The translations under genes and the position numbers were made by a program. This document shows, one piece after another, positions 17,501 through 63,174 of a DNA stretch of 64,000 nucleotides. Source of the DNA: an uncultured virus (IMG/VR IMGVR_UViG_3300002161_000007) (taxonomy: Duplodnaviria > Heunggongvirae > Uroviricota > Caudoviricetes); the IMG/VR virus record IMGVR_UViG_3300002161_000007, positions 1 to 64,000 of that record; one strand, given 5' to 3'. The stretch's first letter is position 1, and each line of letters starts with the position of its first letter. The notes under the pieces are model-generated. The model did no database searches, was not told the DNA's origin, and saw only the letters and a program-made list of their open reading frames with translations.

Positions 17501-18673
17501 ATGGCTGGTTTTACAGTCCCCAATGCAACCGACTATGCAGTTGGTGGGATCATTGCATCGCTGGATCAAGCAGAACCAGACTCACTTGACTTCTCGTCAT
17601 TATCTGACCGCCGTGATGCGGTACTTAGTGGTGGTGGCTATACCTCTGTTACAACGGCGTCAGGTAACCCTACGCCCGCTTATCTCAACGTAGTACTTGC
17701 TGCTTCAGAGGTTCGCATTGATGGAGTGTATAGCACTATCGCTAGTGGCACAGTTATCGTCCCCCTTGCTGAGGTTAACAGCGATGCTCGCTTTGATTTA
17801 ATTGTTGCTTATAACAACGGTGGTACCTTTCAATACGCCGTAGTATCAGGTACTGCAAGTAGTACAAACCCAGTATTCCCAACGCTTCCAGACACTCAAA
17901 TCCCGCTGTATGCGGTGTATGTAAAGAACACTTTTAACACCACCTACACCACTGAACTCCTTGTAGATAAGCGCATTTTTGATCTTACTTCTCTAACCCG
18001 TTCTGCAAGCGGTGCACCAGCAGGCAGTCTTGGAAATGTTGGAGATGTTTATTTAAACACGACTAGCCCGTCAAATAATGGTCAATCACAGATCTACGTA
18101 AAGACTGGTGCTTCATCATGGGTAAACCTCGCTACATACGTAGCAATGGCTTCAGCCAATACGGCTAATGCTTTAGTACAACGTGATGGTAGCGGTAACT
18201 TTACAGCAGGAACTATTACGGCAACTACCTTCTCAGGATCAGGCGCATCTCTTACAAACATCCCAGGGTCTGCATTAGACAACACATCTGTGGCGACTGG
18301 AAAGATTGCTGATGGTGCCATCACTGTTGCCAAACTTGCTACTGGAGCGCCACGTGCAGGTTTTAACTCTACTCGTTCAACAACTACTGGAAACTACACA
18401 GTGTCTACTTCTGATGTAGGTAAGTTGGTGGAGTTAAGTGCAACTAGTGCAGACATTACCGTAACCGTTCCAGGAACTGGTTTTGCTGACGGTGATCATA
18501 TTGACCTTCTTCAAACCTCCTCTAACACCTACCGTGTCACTATTCAAGGTGACACAGGTGTTACTGTGAGTGCAGAAGGTAACAAAAGAACACTAAAAGC
18601 GCAATGGGCTGGGGCCACTTTGATTAATCGTGGTACCAACACGTGGGTTCTTATCGGCAACTTGACTGCGTAG
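17501..18673 (+). CDS. Fibre/structural protein
   Basis: RFDLIVAY N-domain, ANALVQRDGSGNF.AGTITA and KIADGAITVAKLA fibre motifs, C-terminal ..TNTWVLIGNL. Confidence 0.65.
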   Translation: MAGFTVPNATDYAVGGIIASLDQAEPDSLDFSSLSDRRDAVLSGGGYTSVTTASGNPTPAYLNVVLAASEVRIDGVYSTIASGTVIVPLAEVNSDARFDLIVAYNNGGTFQYAVVSGTASSTNPVFPTLPDTQIPLYAVYVKNTFNTTYTTELLVDKRIFDLTSLTRSASGAPAGSLGNVGDVYLNTTSPSNNGQSQIYVKTGASSWVNLATYVAMASANTANALVQRDGSGNFTAGTITATTFSGSGASLTNIPGSALDNTSVATGKIADGAITVAKLATGAPRAGFNSTRSTTTGNYTVSTSDVGKLVELSATSADITVTVPGTGFADGDHIDLLQTSSNTYRVTIQGDTGVTVSAEGNKRTLKAQWAGATLINRGTNTWVLIGNLTA

Positions 18674-36053: not shown

Positions 36054-36875
36054 ATGCTCAAGAAGTATGGAATTCTCGGTAGTGGCATAACAAGCAAGAA
36101 TGTAATTGAAGATGCCCTCAATGAACTAGGTGTGGACAATGACTTCATTGTTACCTGTGGTGCCAAGCCATCTGAATCCGAGGCACGAGTAATCAACTGG
36201 TTGATTGACATGGAAGTCAATTACGAAATCATTCATGCAGGTAAGGCTCCAACAAAGTTTATTGAGAGTGCCTCGGTTGAACAATTAGAGGTAAACCCAG
36301 CACGGGAAATGATTCGCCAACTTGCTAAGAAAAAAGGAACTCTTTTACTTCTTTGGGATGACACAGTAGTACCTGAGATGGAAGAAATCTGTTTTGATGC
36401 GGCTGATGCTGGTGTCACTATCCTTGATTTGACTAATGGTCTTGTACCAATTGTTGTGGACATTACTACTGAAGAAAAGACAGCACCAGTTCAAACTGAA
36501 GAAGTTGAGATTGAAGCCTTTACTCGTGATGAGATGCTGTCAATGTCCATTGGTGTTCTTCGCCGTACAGCAAAGTCCCAAGGGATCCAGGTAGGTACAT
36601 CTATGTCTAAGGAACAGATCGTGGATGCAATCCTTAATGACGTACCAATGCCAGACCCAATCATTGAAGATACCGAGGTAGAGGAAGTGGACATCCTTCC
36701 ACCAATTGATCTAGGTACTTTTCATGTTGTAAGTAGCGCTCAGAACGACCGAGCAATCACTAGTTCTTACAACACCTGCATGCTTACGGCAACATTCCCT
36801 AGTGGAGTGATTATGAGCCGTCCTGCAAATGTGGAAGAAGTCAAACAGTTGTTTGGCTTTGGTTCAACTGTTTAG
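36054..36875 (+). CDS. Hypothetical protein: SLOG/YspA-like N-domain plus Rho-N-like helical domain
   Basis: GILGS, LLLLWDD, A.DAGV.I.DL; L.SMSI..LR..AK..GI.....MSKEQIVDAIL. Confidence 0.45.
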   Translation: MLKKYGILGSGITSKNVIEDALNELGVDNDFIVTCGAKPSESEARVINWLIDMEVNYEIIHAGKAPTKFIESASVEQLEVNPAREMIRQLAKKKGTLLLLWDDTVVPEMEEICFDAADAGVTILDLTNGLVPIVVDITTEEKTAPVQTEEVEIEAFTRDEMLSMSIGVLRRTAKSQGIQVGTSMSKEQIVDAILNDVPMPDPIIEDTEVEEVDILPPIDLGTFHVVSSAQNDRAITSSYNTCMLTATFPSGVIMSRPANVEEVKQLFGFGSTV

Positions 36876-37145
36876 TTACCACTTAACCTTGTCAGCCCAA
36901 TAAGCGGCAGACATCTTGCCTTTAGAGATGTTCTTAGCGTGACGTGCTTTAAATGAAGCGTTACGTGCAGAACCATCAGGTGAACCTTTAACGCCCTGTT
37001 GACCAAAGCGAATCGTCTTAACTTGATCGCCTTCTTTAGCAACAACAACATGTGACTTGGTTGGGTGATCAGGTGTTGCTTTTGGTTTATTAAAACCAGA
37101 TACACCTGCACGTGTAAGTCGTGGGTCTTTCTTACTCTCAGCCAT
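36876..37145 (-). CDS. Small basic conserved phage protein
   Basis: NKPK.TP.HP.KSHVV, K.IRFGQ.G, R.SF.ARH, SAAYWA.KVKW. Confidence 0.7.
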   Translation of the reverse strand: MAESKKDPRLTRAGVSGFNKPKATPDHPTKSHVVVAKEGDQVKTIRFGQQGVKGSPDGSARNASFKARHAKNISKGKMSAAYWADKVKW

Positions 37146-37309
37146 TACTTCTTACCTTTCTTGGAGACAGCCATGTTGTCAACAAGGTTTGGATACGGAC
37201 GACCAGCGGCTTTAGCACGAGCCTTTGCTTCTGACTTCTGGTCAGGTGTCAACTTAGTTGACTTCTTCTTTGGATTGGGTTTGTCCCATACTTCTTTTTT
37301 AGATGCCAT
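37145..37309 (-). CDS. Small basic protein (54 aa)
   Basis: Own translation MASKKEVWDKPNPKKKSTKLTPDQKSEAKARAKAAGRPYPNLVDNMAVSKKGKK; stop overlaps the next start; TAAACT 6 nt upstream. Confidence 0.7.
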   Translation of the reverse strand: MASKKEVWDKPNPKKKSTKLTPDQKSEAKARAKAAGRPYPNLVDNMAVSKKGKK

Positions 37310-37324
37310 GGGAATAGTTTAGCG

Positions 37325-37413
37325 GTTGGGAGGAGAGCCATTTAACACGGGCAGGGGAGAAAGGAGGTAAAGCCCCTGCTCTGTCGTCCTGAGGAGGTCG
37401 CTCTCCTCCCAAC
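37325..37413. ncRNA. Candidate structured RNA displaying an SD/anti-SD sequence
   Basis: 14-bp perfect stem 37325-37338/37400-37413; inner GCAGGGG/CCCCTGC stem with loop AGAAAGGAGGTAAAG. Confidence 0.5.
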
Positions 37414-37510
37414 ACTCTTATTACTTTAACACCCGATCAGGAAGTGTTAAAGCAACGCCGAGAGTGTAACATGGGCGCCCCGAGAAATGACAACCTGAGG
37501 AGCACAAGAA

Positions 37511-37996
37511 ATGGCAAAGAACAACCGACTGAGTGGCCCCTTTTTACCAGTCCCAAGATGGGTGTTGCCATACATTGCAACTGACTATGTATCCCATGCA
37601 GTACTGAACCACTTCCTTCAGTACCTCCACCCTGATACCCAGGAACTGACGACGTCCTACCAGCACATTGCTGACCAAATGGGTTGTGATCGCCGTACGG
37701 TTATGCGCTCAATAAAACGACTTGAGGAAATTGGTTTGATCGTCAAACAGCACCGTGTCACTAGGTCAAATAAGAACCTGACGAATAGTTACTATGTCAA
37801 TTTTAACAATCCACTAGTGTCACACGAGTCACCCCTAGTGGTGACACTGGAGACACTAGGTAGTGTCACCACAGACACCACTAGTAGTGTCTCCCGTGAC
37901 ACCCAATCAAGAGTATCTATCAAGAGTAAGAAAATCAAGAAGAGGGAAATTTTAACAAAAGTGGATCAGAGGTTGGTGGATGAAGAAACAATTTGA
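37511..37996 (+). CDS. Replication initiator-like winged-HTH protein
   Basis: S...IA..MGC.RRTV.R.I..LEE.GLI......N..N.Y; internal iterons; GAGGAG RBS. Confidence 0.8.
   Translation: MAKNNRLSGPFLPVPRWVLPYIATDYVSHAVLNHFLQYLHPDTQELTTSYQHIADQMGCDRRTVMRSIKRLEEIGLIVKQHRVTRSNKNLTNSYYVNFNNPLVSHESPLVVTLETLGSVTTDTTSSVSRDTQSRVSIKSKKIKKREILTKVDQRLVDEETI
37816..37960. repeat. Four 18-bp quasi-palindromic iterons plus A-rich tract (probable replication origin)
   Basis: AGTGTCACACGAGTCACC (37816), GGTGACACTGGAGACACT (37840), AGTGTCACCACAGACACC (37862), AGTGTCTCCCGTGACACC (37886); then TCAAGA repeats in A-rich DNA. Confidence 0.72.
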
Positions 37997-38381
37997 CGAC
38001 TGGGGAACTGGTTTAGGCGAAGACCCCGATAGAAAAGAACCAGCCCCAAAACAGATGCGCCAAGATTCCCGAGGCTCTCTAGTTCATTTCTTTCGTGACA
38101 GTTTGCCAACCGAGAACCTGATGAGAATCACCGCCCCTGTAAATGGTCCCGCCATGATGAAAGGGTTTAAGAAACTTACAGACAAAGGCTTTACAAACGA
38201 ACAGATTCGTGAGATGATCTTGGACTTCGTTAAGGAGATCACACGCCGACCATTGCCAATAGAAGTGGCACCATGGAGAGCGTTCCTTGCGAATTTAGAT
38301 AAATACGCAAAACAGCAAAGGATGACTAACGATGTTGAACCAACAACAACCTCCATTGACCCCCGTCTCATCGGAGAATAA
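37980..38381 (+). CDS. Hypothetical replication protein (initiator C-terminal-like)
   Basis: Lies between the HTH initiator and the loader; helical. Confidence 0.55.
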   Translation: MKKQFDDWGTGLGEDPDRKEPAPKQMRQDSRGSLVHFFRDSLPTENLMRITAPVNGPAMMKGFKKLTDKGFTNEQIREMILDFVKEITRRPLPIEVAPWRAFLANLDKYAKQQRMTNDVEPTTTSIDPRLIGE

Positions 38382-38505
38382 AAAACTATTAGCAGTTCGT
38401 TGCCTTGGTTGTGGGGTTCTTTTTATGCGACCAGAAGATTATGCGATGCATTTCTCAAGCATTGGCTGTAACATGCAAACCCCCGTGTATAAGAAACGAG
38501 CATAA
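38332..38505 (+). CDS. Small C2HC zinc-finger-like protein (57 aa)
   Basis: Own translation containing CLGCGVLFMRPEDYAMHFSSIGC; AAGGA upstream; fills the gap before dnaC. Confidence 0.5.
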   Translation: MLNQQQPPLTPVSSENKKLLAVRCLGCGVLFMRPEDYAMHFSSIGCNMQTPVYKKRA

Positions 38506-55133: not shown

Positions 55134-55820
55134 ATGGGTGGTATGAAAGACTTTGCAAAACTGGTTCTTCAGCAAACAGAGACAGCAAAAGCAATAAACG
55201 AAGTTAAAACAGGTATTGCTGACATTAAAAAAGCAAAAGAAGACGCTACAAAACCTGCTCCCCCACCACCACCTGTTGTTCCAGCACCAGTAGTTCCAGT
55301 GCTTCCTACATCTCCATTGGTTCCACCACCCCCTGGTGCTAGCCCAATGGGTAAGCCACGTCCAACTTTGCGCATATCCCCAACATTTACAAAGACACCA
55401 GTAGAGGACTTAACGCCACTACAACAACGGGCTGTTGCTGGCGTATCTGATCGCCCAATAATTGAAGTAACCCCTCCAGCGCCACGCCCAGCGCCAACAC
55501 CAATTGAACGTCCTCGGCTCAAAATCAACATGGAACGGGTTACTCCAGAACCACCTGCTCCTACCGTATTAACACCAATACAACAGCAGGCAGTTGCTGG
55601 GGTTTCTCAAAATAAAGCGGTACCTACGTCTACCACGCCTGCGGGTCAACCAGTTAACCCATTGCCCCCAATGCAACGCCCTCCAGCAGTAACGGCAACT
55701 AACAGACCACCTCGTGCCCCTTCTGCAACTGCTCCAGCCAAAACTCGTGCACAGCGCAGAGCAATGGGTGCTGACGCTATTGCTAGAATTCGTGAATCTT
55801 TAAATAATCAGAAACCGTGA
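55134..55820 (+). CDS. Proline-rich disordered protein with internal repeat
   Basis: RP.L.I.....P....LTP.QQ.AVAGVS occurs twice. Confidence 0.6.
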   Translation: MGGMKDFAKLVLQQTETAKAINEVKTGIADIKKAKEDATKPAPPPPPVVPAPVVPVLPTSPLVPPPPGASPMGKPRPTLRISPTFTKTPVEDLTPLQQRAVAGVSDRPIIEVTPPAPRPAPTPIERPRLKINMERVTPEPPAPTVLTPIQQQAVAGVSQNKAVPTSTTPAGQPVNPLPPMQRPPAVTATNRPPRAPSATAPAKTRAQRRAMGADAIARIRESLNNQKP

Positions 55821-59635: not shown

Positions 59636-59958
59636 GACCACCAACATTCAATAATCGCACAGACATTCTGACGGAGGCAGAGTTGCTCGTCAACGGTGAT
59701 CGCAATGACACATACGGTGATCCAATTGATGACTTTGCCACTACGGCAGAAATGTGGTCAACATACCTTCGCCGTGTTGTAGATAAGCGAGAGTCAACAC
59801 AACTCAAGCCACATGATGTCGCTGTCATGATGACCCTTCTCAAGATCTCTCGCATCTCATGGTCACCTGAGAAGCGTGACCACTGGGCAGACAGCGCTGG
59901 CTATATTGCTTGTGGTTGGGACTGCGTAGTTCGTGAAGAGGGGTACCACAATGCCTAA
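59632..59958 (+). CDS. DUF6378-like protein (dNTP diphosphatase-related helical fold)
   Basis: L.EA..LV.GDR...YG.P...F...A..W..YL, DVA.MM.LLKISR, D.W.D.AGY. Confidence 0.75.
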   Translation: MRPPTFNNRTDILTEAELLVNGDRNDTYGDPIDDFATTAEMWSTYLRRVVDKRESTQLKPHDVAVMMTLLKISRISWSPEKRDHWADSAGYIACGWDCVVREEGYHNA

Positions 59959-61762: not shown

Positions 61763-62832
61763 GAATTGGCTTTGCCAGTGGTGACTACGTTCCAGTACAA
61801 CGCTCCACAGATGGTAAACAGCATTGGGGTGGCTCGGGCTGGGCACGCATTGGTCAGTATGTGGAGTGGTTGGAGCATTTTGAAAAAGATGTAATTGTAG
61901 GAGTGCTCACATGGAACAAGAACTACTTCTGCATCCGAGGTGCTAACGATGAGTTGATCCCCGTTGACATCATTGTGATGCAACGACTCATGCACGACTC
62001 ACTAGCCGATCACATTCACAAGGCTCGTGCTGTTGGACAAATTGTAATTAATGATTTAGACGACTGGTACTGGGGACTTGATCCAGCCAACGATGCATTC
62101 ATGTCATCGCACCCAAAGACCAACCCAAAAGAGAACCGAGATCATTACAAGAAGGTGCTCGCATCCAGCACGCTGGTCACCGTGTCAACTCCGTATCTTG
62201 CCGATCGCATCAAGTCGTTTGTGCATTGCCCAATCATCACATTGGAGAACACGGTAGACATCTCACGGTTTACTCCACATGTGCACACCGATAGTTCTGT
62301 TCCTGTAGTTGGGTGGGTGGGAGCCACGAGCCATCGCTCCAGTGACTTAGAGATCATGAAGGGGATCATCAACCCTTTAATCGCTAACAACGAGATTAAG
62401 TTCCATCACAGCGGTCACTACTCGCATGCACCATCAGTTGCCAGCAAGTTAGGACTGCACGAAGATCAGGTGACTGTTGCGAATGCAGTGGACGCCAAAG
62501 AATACCCATCGCTGTTGACCATGGACGTGGGTATCGCACCACTGCGTGATACGCCATTCAACCATGCCAAGAGCGACATCAAGTTGTTGGAGTACTCCTC
62601 CTCGGGGATTCCATGGGTTGGTTCATCTCTTTCAGCGTATGAGGCTTTGCGTGATAGTTGGGGAGTTGGTCGTACTGCGAGTAAACCATCGCAGTGGCTC
62701 AAGCATCTGAGGGATCTTCGGGATCCAGTCAGGCGAGCAGACGAGGGAGAGGCTTTGAGAGAAGCGGTGCGCTCACGAGACATCAGCCTCGGAGCACACC
62801 GCCTCAACTTACTTATTGAAGATCTTTCCTAG
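61759..62832 (+). CDS. GT-B glycosyltransferase
   Basis: IVMQR, DLDD, VTVSTPYL, N.VD, GWVG...H..DL, D.GIAPL...FN.AKS.IK.LEY...GIP. Confidence 0.85.
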   Translation: MRIGFASGDYVPVQRSTDGKQHWGGSGWARIGQYVEWLEHFEKDVIVGVLTWNKNYFCIRGANDELIPVDIIVMQRLMHDSLADHIHKARAVGQIVINDLDDWYWGLDPANDAFMSSHPKTNPKENRDHYKKVLASSTLVTVSTPYLADRIKSFVHCPIITLENTVDISRFTPHVHTDSSVPVVGWVGATSHRSSDLEIMKGIINPLIANNEIKFHHSGHYSHAPSVASKLGLHEDQVTVANAVDAKEYPSLLTMDVGIAPLRDTPFNHAKSDIKLLEYSSSGIPWVGSSLSAYEALRDSWGVGRTASKPSQWLKHLRDLRDPVRRADEGEALREAVRSRDISLGAHRLNLLIEDLS

Positions 62833-63174
62833 ATTCAGGCGATCAACCTTTTCAAGAGACTGCATATCTCTGCCACCCCATACGCCCCAGCGGATGTCGT
62901 TCTTGACGGCATAGCGTAGGCATTGGAATGAAACAGGACAGCCTTGGCATATCTCAATGGCTTGCTTTCTTTTTAATCGTATTTCTTTGTTATGCCCTAC
63001 TAATCCAGTAGCAAAGAAAGTAGTTGTGTCTTCATGTCGGCATGACGCATATTTGCGCCATGTACCTACTTCGGGGAACGGTAAAGGATCCATGATCTCT
63101 TTGTTAATGATTGTAGGTACATGAAGCGGGGGATTTGACTCCCCCGCATCGTTGTAGTAATCCCAGCGGTTCAT
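62809..63174 (-). CDS. whiB: WhiB-family regulator
   Basis: W...ASC......FF, A..IC.GCPV..QCL.YA......GVWGG. Confidence 0.88.
   Translation of the reverse strand: MNRWDYYNDAGESNPPLHVPTIINKEIMDPLPFPEVGTWRKYASCRHEDTTTFFATGLVGHNKEIRLKRKQAIEICQGCPVSFQCLRYAVKNDIRWGVWGGRDMQSLEKVDRLNLGKIFNK

Follow-up and report, generated by a model that had tools for sequence, protein, structure and literature searches.

A probable structured leader RNA, antisense to a repeated ribosome-site tag, in an uncultured actinophage

Why would a phage carry, between two divergent sets of genes, a long perfect inverted repeat with Shine-Dalgarno (SD)-like motifs that lead to no start codon? The question is posed by an element near position 37,400 of a 64-kb stretch of DNA (the window) from an uncultured member of the Caudoviricetes, positions 1 to 64,000 of the 75-kb IMG/VR record IMGVR_UViG_3300002161_000007, whose completeness is estimated at 78%. 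The element sits in a 201-nt gap, flanked on one side by two small leftward genes and on the other by the gene that opens the rightward replication operon (Table 1). A preliminary description of the locus took it for a free-standing small RNA (sRNA) that would hijack translation, either as a minus-strand mimic of the anti-SD tail of 16S ribosomal RNA that blocks SD-led messages, or as a plus-strand decoy for 30S subunits. It noted correctly that neither SD-like motif is followed by ATG, GTG or TTG at the spacing of a ribosome-binding site (RBS). We find that a conserved, structured leader RNA very probably exists on the minus strand, and that one of its unpaired motifs is the exact antisense of a tag repeated at 13 ribosome sites of the same genome. 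The best reading, which we hold tentatively, is that of a trans-acting anti-RBS RNA that represses the tagged regulon.

A covarying structure on the minus strand

The stems and motifs given in the preliminary description can all be read directly in the sequence. GTTGGGAGGAGAGC at 37325-37338 has its perfect complement, GCTCTCCTCCCAAC, at 37400-37413, and these 14-bp arms, together with AGUG/CGCU and one bulged base, make up an outer helix of 17 pairs. Inside it, GCAGGGG (37351-37357) and CCCCTGC (37373-37379) enclose a 15-nt loop that contains AGAAAGGAGGT (37358-37368), and TGAGGAGGT lies at 37390-37398. The window holds 19 inverted repeats with arms no more than 150 nt apart, among which this is the sole one whose arms are 100% complementary. 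Both strands fold better than all 200 of their dinucleotide shuffles, the plus strand at -54.7 kcal/mol (z -4.2) and the minus strand at -47.8 kcal/mol (z -3.15). Opening is predicted to cost 0.1 kcal/mol at the apical loop and 3.0 kcal/mol at the motif in the internal loop. The word AAAGGAGGT occurs twice in the window, against 0.44 copies expected, a count reached in 6 of 100 shuffles.

Relatives were gathered through the initiator protein encoded beside the element, which gave 27 viral and 17 metagenome loci, one of the latter being identical to the window. In these 44 sources a covariance model detected 32 copies of the element, representing 19 distinct sequences, 18 of them full-length and one (L003) truncated. 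There is one copy in each of the genomes G000 (this phage), G001 and G002, and the model has no match in the complete relative G003. Since its structure holds three wrong pairs in the middle of the element, the model served only to find and align copies, and pairs were counted on the 18 full-length variants for the outer helix (17 pairs) and the apical stem (7 pairs) only. A pattern scan of viral contigs returned 28 loci, seven of them on new contigs; one of the seven (L057) is a true member and the other six are chance matches within coding sequence. Among 50,697 phage records, blastn found no cultured phage with a match over the element, the 25 records that did match doing so only over the 89-aa leftward gene.

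These relatives show that the structure is conserved and on which strand it is selected. For 14 aligned minus-strand sequences (12 distinct), RNAalifold gave 31 pairs, with all 372 of 372 cells paired and compensatory changes in 10 pairs; none of 500 shuffles reached this pairing, and sliding the partners by 1-3 columns left only 39-56% paired. Across the 24 stem pairs of the 18 distinct full-length variants (432 cells), the minus strand has 393 Watson-Crick and 39 G.U combinations and no mismatch. The 39 wobble cells are spread over nine of the 24 pairs and would be A.C on the plus strand; cells that would be G.U only on the plus strand number zero. As the two arms consist of purines only and of pyrimidines only, any transition must produce a G.U on either the minus or the plus strand. 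That transitions yield the minus-strand form only implies that the selected molecule is the minus-strand RNA, and argues against both a purely DNA-level element and a functional plus-strand transcript.

The loops behave quite differently from the stems. The apical stem exists in at least six versions among the 18 variants, whereas CCUCCUUUC in its loop is constant, and the internal-loop ACCUCCUCAGG is constant in all 19 distinct variants, truncated L003 included, preceded by G or A. Stems that covary and loops that stay constant across distinct relatives are what the preliminary description had proposed to look for, and this part of its reading holds. The truncated copy (L003, about 2330-2389) is otherwise like L002; it lacks 27 nt between short direct repeats, a deletion that takes the 3' arm of the outer helix and keeps the anti-tag motif and the apical hairpin, and either the variant is viable or the hairpin gave rise to an artefact in the assembly.

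The preliminary description had also pointed to a minus-strand extended -10 that would start an RNA just before the stem. The promoter scan finds this site, P_L. Taken alone it is weak, with four such sites in the region against 2.8 expected, and it owes its weight to its conservation in the relatives. In 16 of 17 distinct upstream variants GGTG-n(1-3)-TAnnnT lies 6-8 nt ahead of AGUG/AGCG at the foot of the helix, most of them carrying a TTnnCA-like -35 a further 16-17 nt upstream; the remaining one has TAGGGT about 9 nt ahead of the helix. The transcript is thus predicted to start at the helix foot, at about 37415-37417. A terminator scan found no intrinsic terminator at the element on either strand, nor does a U-run follow the helix; the hairpin is followed by CACUCUUAUUAC on the plus and by CGCUAAACUAUU on the minus strand. 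The element therefore reads as the 5' leader of a small leftward operon and not as the free-standing sRNA gene first supposed, and the leader RNA would run on into the 54-aa gene.

Rfam 15, searched with cmscan over 36500-38500 on both strands at E values up to 10, has no family on the element, so that the kinship with 6C or cuckoo RNAs considered in the preliminary description finds no match there; two unrelated weak matches lie elsewhere. A translated small open reading frame (ORF) using the SD-like motif, which would have spoken against an RNA, was not found either, there being no canonical start. A 38-aa minus-strand ORF that runs across the element was discarded, since relatives differ in it by 1- and 2-nt indels. 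On the plus strand a CTG/TTG frame is not conserved, a TTG at the equivalent spot meeting a stop after five codons in most relatives.

Two lineages beyond the family deserve mention. L069 and L072, whose initiators are 56-74% identical, have perfect hairpins of 14-18 bp with unrelated stems. They share the loop TTGAGGA(C/T)T, followed by GAGCAACCAACC-(N)-GAGGAG, which resembles their own initiator RBS region; read as RNA, the common loop is UCCUCA with a flanking CUCCUC motif. This suggests, at the level of motifs, that the anti-SD theme may be wider than the element's own family.

A repeated tag at ribosome sites and its antisense

What could the invariant loops recognise? With at most one mismatch, the tag CCTGAGGAGGT has 14 minus-strand copies in G000. 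Thirteen of them cluster at 66.7-74.9 kb, outside the window, each 4-10 nt ahead of the ATG of a leftward gene; the fourteenth, at 18227, is a stray match. The plus strand has a single copy, which is inside the element, and a reversed-pattern control gave no match in G000. Read as RNA the tag is CCUGAGGAGG(U). The five bases on each side of its GAGG core covary as a 5-bp stem (GACCT/AGGTC, TACCT/AGGTA, TGCCT/AGGCA, AATCT/AGGTT), with U.G in the stem of two copies, implying that the tag is a mini-hairpin ribosome site. Ten of the 13 tagged proteins are without a Pfam family, and the others include an SNF2-type helicase and a DUF6011 protein. Several of the tagged genes (L082, G000 62701-75020) are preceded by short GC-rich palindromes, such as GGAGCGAACGCTCC or GAGCAACCGCTC, and then by GTGAATA or CACTACAA words, a layout that recalls the extended start-associated sequences of Cluster K mycobacteriophages discussed below.

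The internal loop of the leader is the exact antisense of this tag over 10-12 nt, and it also matches 9 nt of the RBS of the replication initiator gene. In the window CCTGAGGAG has two copies only, one in the element and one in the initiator RBS, and the latter is retained wherever a relative carries the element. When the element is aligned locally with the initiator RBS region, the exact 9-mer alone is returned, a score reached by 15-29 of 500 mononucleotide shuffles; the same alignment is stronger in the L070/L071 lineage, where 2-3 of 500 shuffles reach it, and weak in L069 and L072 (67-99 of 500). Two complete relatives repeat the arrangement. G001 has eight cluster tags and one exact inverted copy, in the element. 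G002 has 11 cluster tags and one more same-strand match at 55275, and on its opposite strand the exact inverted copy of the element and a stray match with one mismatch at 90122.

An accessible seed complementary to the ribosome sites of its targets is one mark of a trans-acting sRNA, and here the complementarity is perfect over 10-12 nt at 13 tagged sites. When duplex energies are combined with opening costs, the predicted net pairing of the 13 tagged sites ranges from -11.2 to -16.4 kcal/mol (mean -13.6), that of the initiator RBS with the internal loop is -12.1 kcal/mol, and the mean for 56 other gene starts is -5.1 kcal/mol. The three best untagged sites are RBSs of the GGAGGUAGA type and are taken by the apical loop. 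An unrestricted duplex scan over the whole plus strand returned noise and self-antisense only.

Such pairing would be selective rather than general. A crude gene call gives 54 of 90 genes a strong SD match and 23 of 90 a moderate one, so that a general blocker of SDs would hit the phage itself, and the 13 tagged genes outside the window point to a specific regulon rather than to bulk translation. The minus-strand anti-SD RNA of the preliminary description therefore survives in its strand, its promoter and its RBS-pairing loops, and not in the general block it was supposed to impose. Nor is a global bias towards leaderless mRNAs supported, since the phage genes are mostly SD-led and lie in long, tightly packed operons.

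We propose the following mechanism, in which the steps beyond the structure and its complementarity are conditional. The element would be the structured 5' leader of a short leftward transcript in a freshwater-type actinophage, its fold holding two single-stranded CCUCC motifs in fixed positions. Once produced, the RNA would encounter its targets in trans, the internal-loop motif GACCUCCUCAGG pairing over 10-12 bp with the tagged ribosome sites, against the roughly 7 bp available to the ribosome, and in part with the initiator RBS. The apical loop matches an ideal SD. Firing of the leftward promoter would then shut off translation of the tagged genes, presumably an early set, as an RNA counterpart of the protein-based shut-off of early mRNAs in T4. 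Among the observations that favour action in trans, the unpaired motifs are invariant on drifting stems, 13 tagged sites are matched exactly, and the leader is not tied to one gene. The last point follows from the first gene behind the leader, which varies between relatives: in this phage it is the 54-aa gene, whereas L002 has a 74-aa gene there and L013 a small Cys-rich ORF.

Surroundings of the element

The element and its neighbours are listed in Table 1. GC content is 39-52%, and the plus strand carries nearly all of the genes. The phage infects actinobacteria, as indicated by a WhiB gene at 62809-63174.

Table 1. Coordinates of the element, its putative control sites and the adjacent genes (positions in the window).
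Feature	Position	Strand	Description
Structured RNA domain, about 96 nt	37321..37416	-	Outer helix, internal loop and apical hairpin
Outer helix, 5' arm GUUGGGAGGAGAGC	37400..37413	-	Purine-only in all relatives; GGAGG or GGGAG core kept
Outer helix, 3' arm GCUCUCCUCCCAAC	37325..37338	-	Ends 15 nt upstream of the AUG of the first leftward gene
Apical hairpin	37351..37379	-	7-bp stem closing the 15-nt loop CUUUACCUCCUUUCU at 37358-37372
Anti-tag motif GACCUCCUCAGG in internal loop	37388..37399	-	Antisense of ribosome-site tag CCUGAGGAGGUC
Leftward promoter P_L (predicted)	37423..37450	-	-35 TTAACA (37450-37445); 16-nt spacer; extended -10 TG-n-TAAAGT (37431-37423)
Second inverted repeat, candidate operator	37421..37455	.	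Arms 37421-37432 and 37444-37455, over -35 and -10 of P_L
First leftward gene	37145..37309	-	54 aa, lysine-rich; phrog_34011, E 1.4e-26; AUG without SD
Second leftward gene	36876..37145	-	89 aa; phrog_7595, E 1.6e-36
Replication initiator (HTH_36, O-like)	37511..37996	+	Pfam and PHROGs matches; opens rightward replication operon
Initiator RBS CCUGAGGAG	37494..37502	+	9-nt partial copy of tag

The second inverted repeat overlies P_L. Relatives of the L013 type (L013, about 2400-2450) have a different inverted repeat at this position, CACTATACAGCACC ... GGTGCCGTATAGTG, and the repeat is probably an operator whose specificity has changed.

What follows the leader is a leftward operon that forms a variable cassette, encoding small lysine-rich proteins of 54, 74, 86 and 89 aa (L013 1074-2473; L002 1643-2300). 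In L013 it additionally encodes a 148-aa protein that appears, by inspection of its sequence, to be Dps/ferritin-like. The 89-aa gene is 67-81% identical in DNA to genes of marine roseophages (CRP-5 and SIO1), the SAR116 phage HMO-2011 and the cyanophage KBS-S-2A, an unusually high conservation for phages with unrelated hosts, and its protein also resembles an internal piece of the 'minor head protein and DNA pilot' family (phrog_220).

Downstream of the initiator gene come a DnaC-like ATPase and then a DnaB helicase. A -10-like TAACAT (37468-37473) belonging to the initiator gene is conserved and is placed downstream of the element. GTGTAnCATG is conserved ahead of the initiator gene but does not recur as a promoter motif, having 18 matches at up to one mismatch against 20 expected. 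The 3' half of the initiator gene (37790-37905) is dense in inverted and direct repeats, with words of the CACTAGTG/GTGACAC type and 42-nt arms that are 79% complementary, an arrangement suggestive of an iteron-bearing origin within the initiator gene, comparable to lambda O.

Competing explanations and known systems

The strongest competitor, which we consider unlikely but deserving of serious attention, is a leader that works in cis only. Its 5'-terminal helix would protect the leftward mRNA from 5'-end-dependent decay, or would govern the SD-less first gene, the CCUCC motifs serving in an intramolecular contact or in protein binding. Stabilising hairpins at the 5' terminus and SD-like stabilisers are known features of bacterial mRNAs. 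A predicted start at the foot of a stable helix, the very 5' end of the transcript, is the classic place for such a hairpin, and the missing terminator and a first gene that begins 15 nt past the helix without an SD also fit this view. So does the plain long hairpin, lacking a CCUCC loop, that the more distant relatives L023, L024, L070 and L071, which are related to G003, have at the same place. By sequence inspection, AGAAAGG in the RBS of the second gene could also pair over 7 nt with the apical loop. A stabiliser, however, needs no two invariant unpaired motifs on drifting stems, nor any antisense of the tag, so that the exact match of the internal loop to a tag present 13 times is left unexplained; moreover, the first downstream gene, which such a leader would serve, differs between relatives.

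An improbable alternative is a signal at the level of DNA, in which the tag would be bound by a DNA-binding protein, much as are the asymmetric stoperators of Cluster A mycobacteriophages, which PMC3203893 mentions as a contrast, and the inverted copy in the element would be one more site. Together with its flanks the tag forms a near-palindrome (GACCT GAGG AGGTC), and the element lies between two divergent promoters, beside the second inverted repeat. Yet the fixed distance of 4-10 nt from tag to start fits translation, the two tags with T.G in the stem pair only as RNA, on the mRNA strand, and the stems of the element follow RNA rules on one strand only.

More improbable still is a mimic of the 16S 3' tail, which would either act as a decoy, diverting a host factor able to recognise or cut the anti-SD, or soak up strong host SDs in general. 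Its attraction is the invariant CCUCCUUUC in a fully open loop. We take the 11-mer, beyond the CCUCCU core, to be the complement of the actinobacterial 16S tail. This core is named in PMC12274833, and toxins that remove the anti-SD have been described in actinobacteria, among them MazF-mt11, which cuts at CACCU according to the same source, and RelE1 (as given in PMC12620021). Neither CCUCC motif of the element is preceded by CA, so that the published CACCU site is absent, a single RNA per genome could hardly titrate bulk mRNA, and the phage genes are themselves mostly SD-dependent.

Highly improbable, finally, is a functional plus-strand RNA, whether as the 30S decoy of the preliminary description, an SD-rich leader that loads 30S subunits, or an SD-like stabiliser of the STAB-SD type, polypurine examples of which are known at 5' ends: three SD-like motifs without a start codon and a slightly better fold speak for it, whereas all 39 wobble cells would become A.C with none the other way, so that the structure is selected on the strand that a STAB-SD could not use, the conserved TAACAT of the initiator gene lies downstream of the element, no conserved ORF is present, and TAGTTT (37315-37320), suggested earlier as a promoter element, can be read there but gave no plus-strand promoter in the scan.

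For a trans-acting leader RNA, the functionally nearest known RNA is 6C and the nearest phage logic the action of RegB and RegA on early mRNAs in T4. As described in PMC6486639, 6C is an actinobacterial sRNA whose C-rich loops pair directly, with no chaperone, with G-rich sites on several mRNAs, including that of a replication gene. The likeness lies in an RNA of actinobacterial type with C-rich loops aimed at G-rich mRNA sites, a replication gene among them. The element differs in that its loops are of the CCUCC type and not C runs, it has no Rfam match, it is phage-encoded and within an mRNA leader, and one of its seeds matches a repeated tag exactly. In T4, the RegB nuclease cuts at GGAG and RegA is a repressor, both controlling early mRNAs according to PMC1702504 and PMC3014915. 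There too a phage function is aimed at the SD region of the phage's own early messages and ends their translation, with the difference that proteins act in T4 and a base-pairing RNA is proposed here.

A closer parallel for the tag itself is found in the Cluster K mycobacteriophages, where start-associated sequences (SAS) with the 13-bp consensus GGGATAGGAGCCC stand 3-7 bp ahead of the starts of non-structural genes (PMC3203893). The 2011 authors left open, in the same account, whether a phage or host RNA or protein reads the SAS, and later papers still call its role undefined (PMC11373665, PMC12699233). We found no antisense RNA proposed for it: in the accessible text of these two papers, 'antisense' occurs 0 times in PMC12699233, and 'small RNA', 'noncoding' and 'non-coding' 0 times in PMC11373665. 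Both systems have a private, extended RBS tag a few bases ahead of a dozen or more non-structural starts, the 13 tags here all being on one strand, 4-10 nt before an ATG, and belonging mostly to proteins without a family. In both, conservation exceeds what pairing with 16S RNA explains, and hairpin-forming sequences lie just upstream of several tags. Both also have a single inverted copy away from gene starts, which here is exact in G000, G001 and G002, where it is the element, and is missing from G003. The differences are that the tag here is CCTGAGGAGGT and not GGGATAGGAGCCC, the two sharing only the AGGAG core; that the flanks of the present tag covary as a mini-hairpin; and that the anti-SAS loop is not kept in all Cluster K subgroups.

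The phage Anaya offers an independent parallel. Within the stretch searched it has 16 forward SAS and one reversed copy, which lies in the 385-nt gap between gp96 and gp97 and was noted in 2011. When the transcribed strand is folded, CCUCCUAUCC from this copy forms the 10-nt loop at the apex of a nested hairpin (z -4.3), and a conserved version of the region occupies the same position in 150 Mycobacterium phage records. Folding of nine Cluster K sequences gave 14 pairs, three with a compensatory change, some ends being cut by the ranges chosen. At 59805-59899 of Anaya (L083 34806-34900) two adjacent hairpins follow the gp96 terminator; clear covariation is seen in the first among 13 Cluster K phages, and the second displays the anti-SAS loop. 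This stretch is annotated as a hypothetical protein in some records and left blank in others. The parallel is genuine, though not complete.

Several points weigh against the trans-acting RNA. The leader is known from DNA sequence, a search for RNA sequencing runs having turned up none with this stretch, and its transcription is predicted. A defined 3' end, in the form of a terminator, is absent on the minus strand, so that a free sRNA would need processing. That the tagged genes would be early is suggested solely by the content of their cluster (10 of 13 without a Pfam match, an SNF2 helicase and a DUF6011 protein). The complete genome G003 carries 15 tags but lacks both an inverted copy and a match to the covariance model, from which it follows that the tag does not depend on the element and has a role of its own. 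The complementarity, moreover, is a consequence of one repeated motif; seed and tag are constant in all relatives, so that seed and target do not covary, and the gene starts used come from a crude caller that favours SD-matched starts. RNAcofold, run with the leader against 69 RBS segments, gave no preference for tagged sites (mean -2.1 vs -2.9 kcal/mol), a comparison limited by the program's inability to place a partner inside a closed loop. In Cluster K, the exact anti-SAS loop is present in six of the 13 sampled phages, degenerate in three and absent from four, and here again seed and tag do not covary, Amohnition keeping GGGATAGGAGCCC with a loop that has drifted.

A broader, doubtful proposal is that actinophages of unrelated lineages share a two-part translation switch, comprising a private RBS tag on a block of genes and a single hairpin RNA that shows the antisense of the tag. 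In the present phage the apical loop, as an exact copy of the 16S tail, would in addition let the RNA reach strong host SDs, or host factors directed at the anti-SD. Were this so, the reversed SAS of Cluster K would serve as the seed in an RNA of the same kind, which would explain what the SAS does, a question open since 2011. The element is a concrete candidate for the reader of such tags, being a conserved RNA whose strand is known, whose start is predicted and whose seed is defined. The same layout recurs in Anaya, which can be cultivated on a laboratory host, so that the idea is within reach of standard phage genetics. If correct, it would give a phage an RNA-only means of timing the translation of a whole block of genes.

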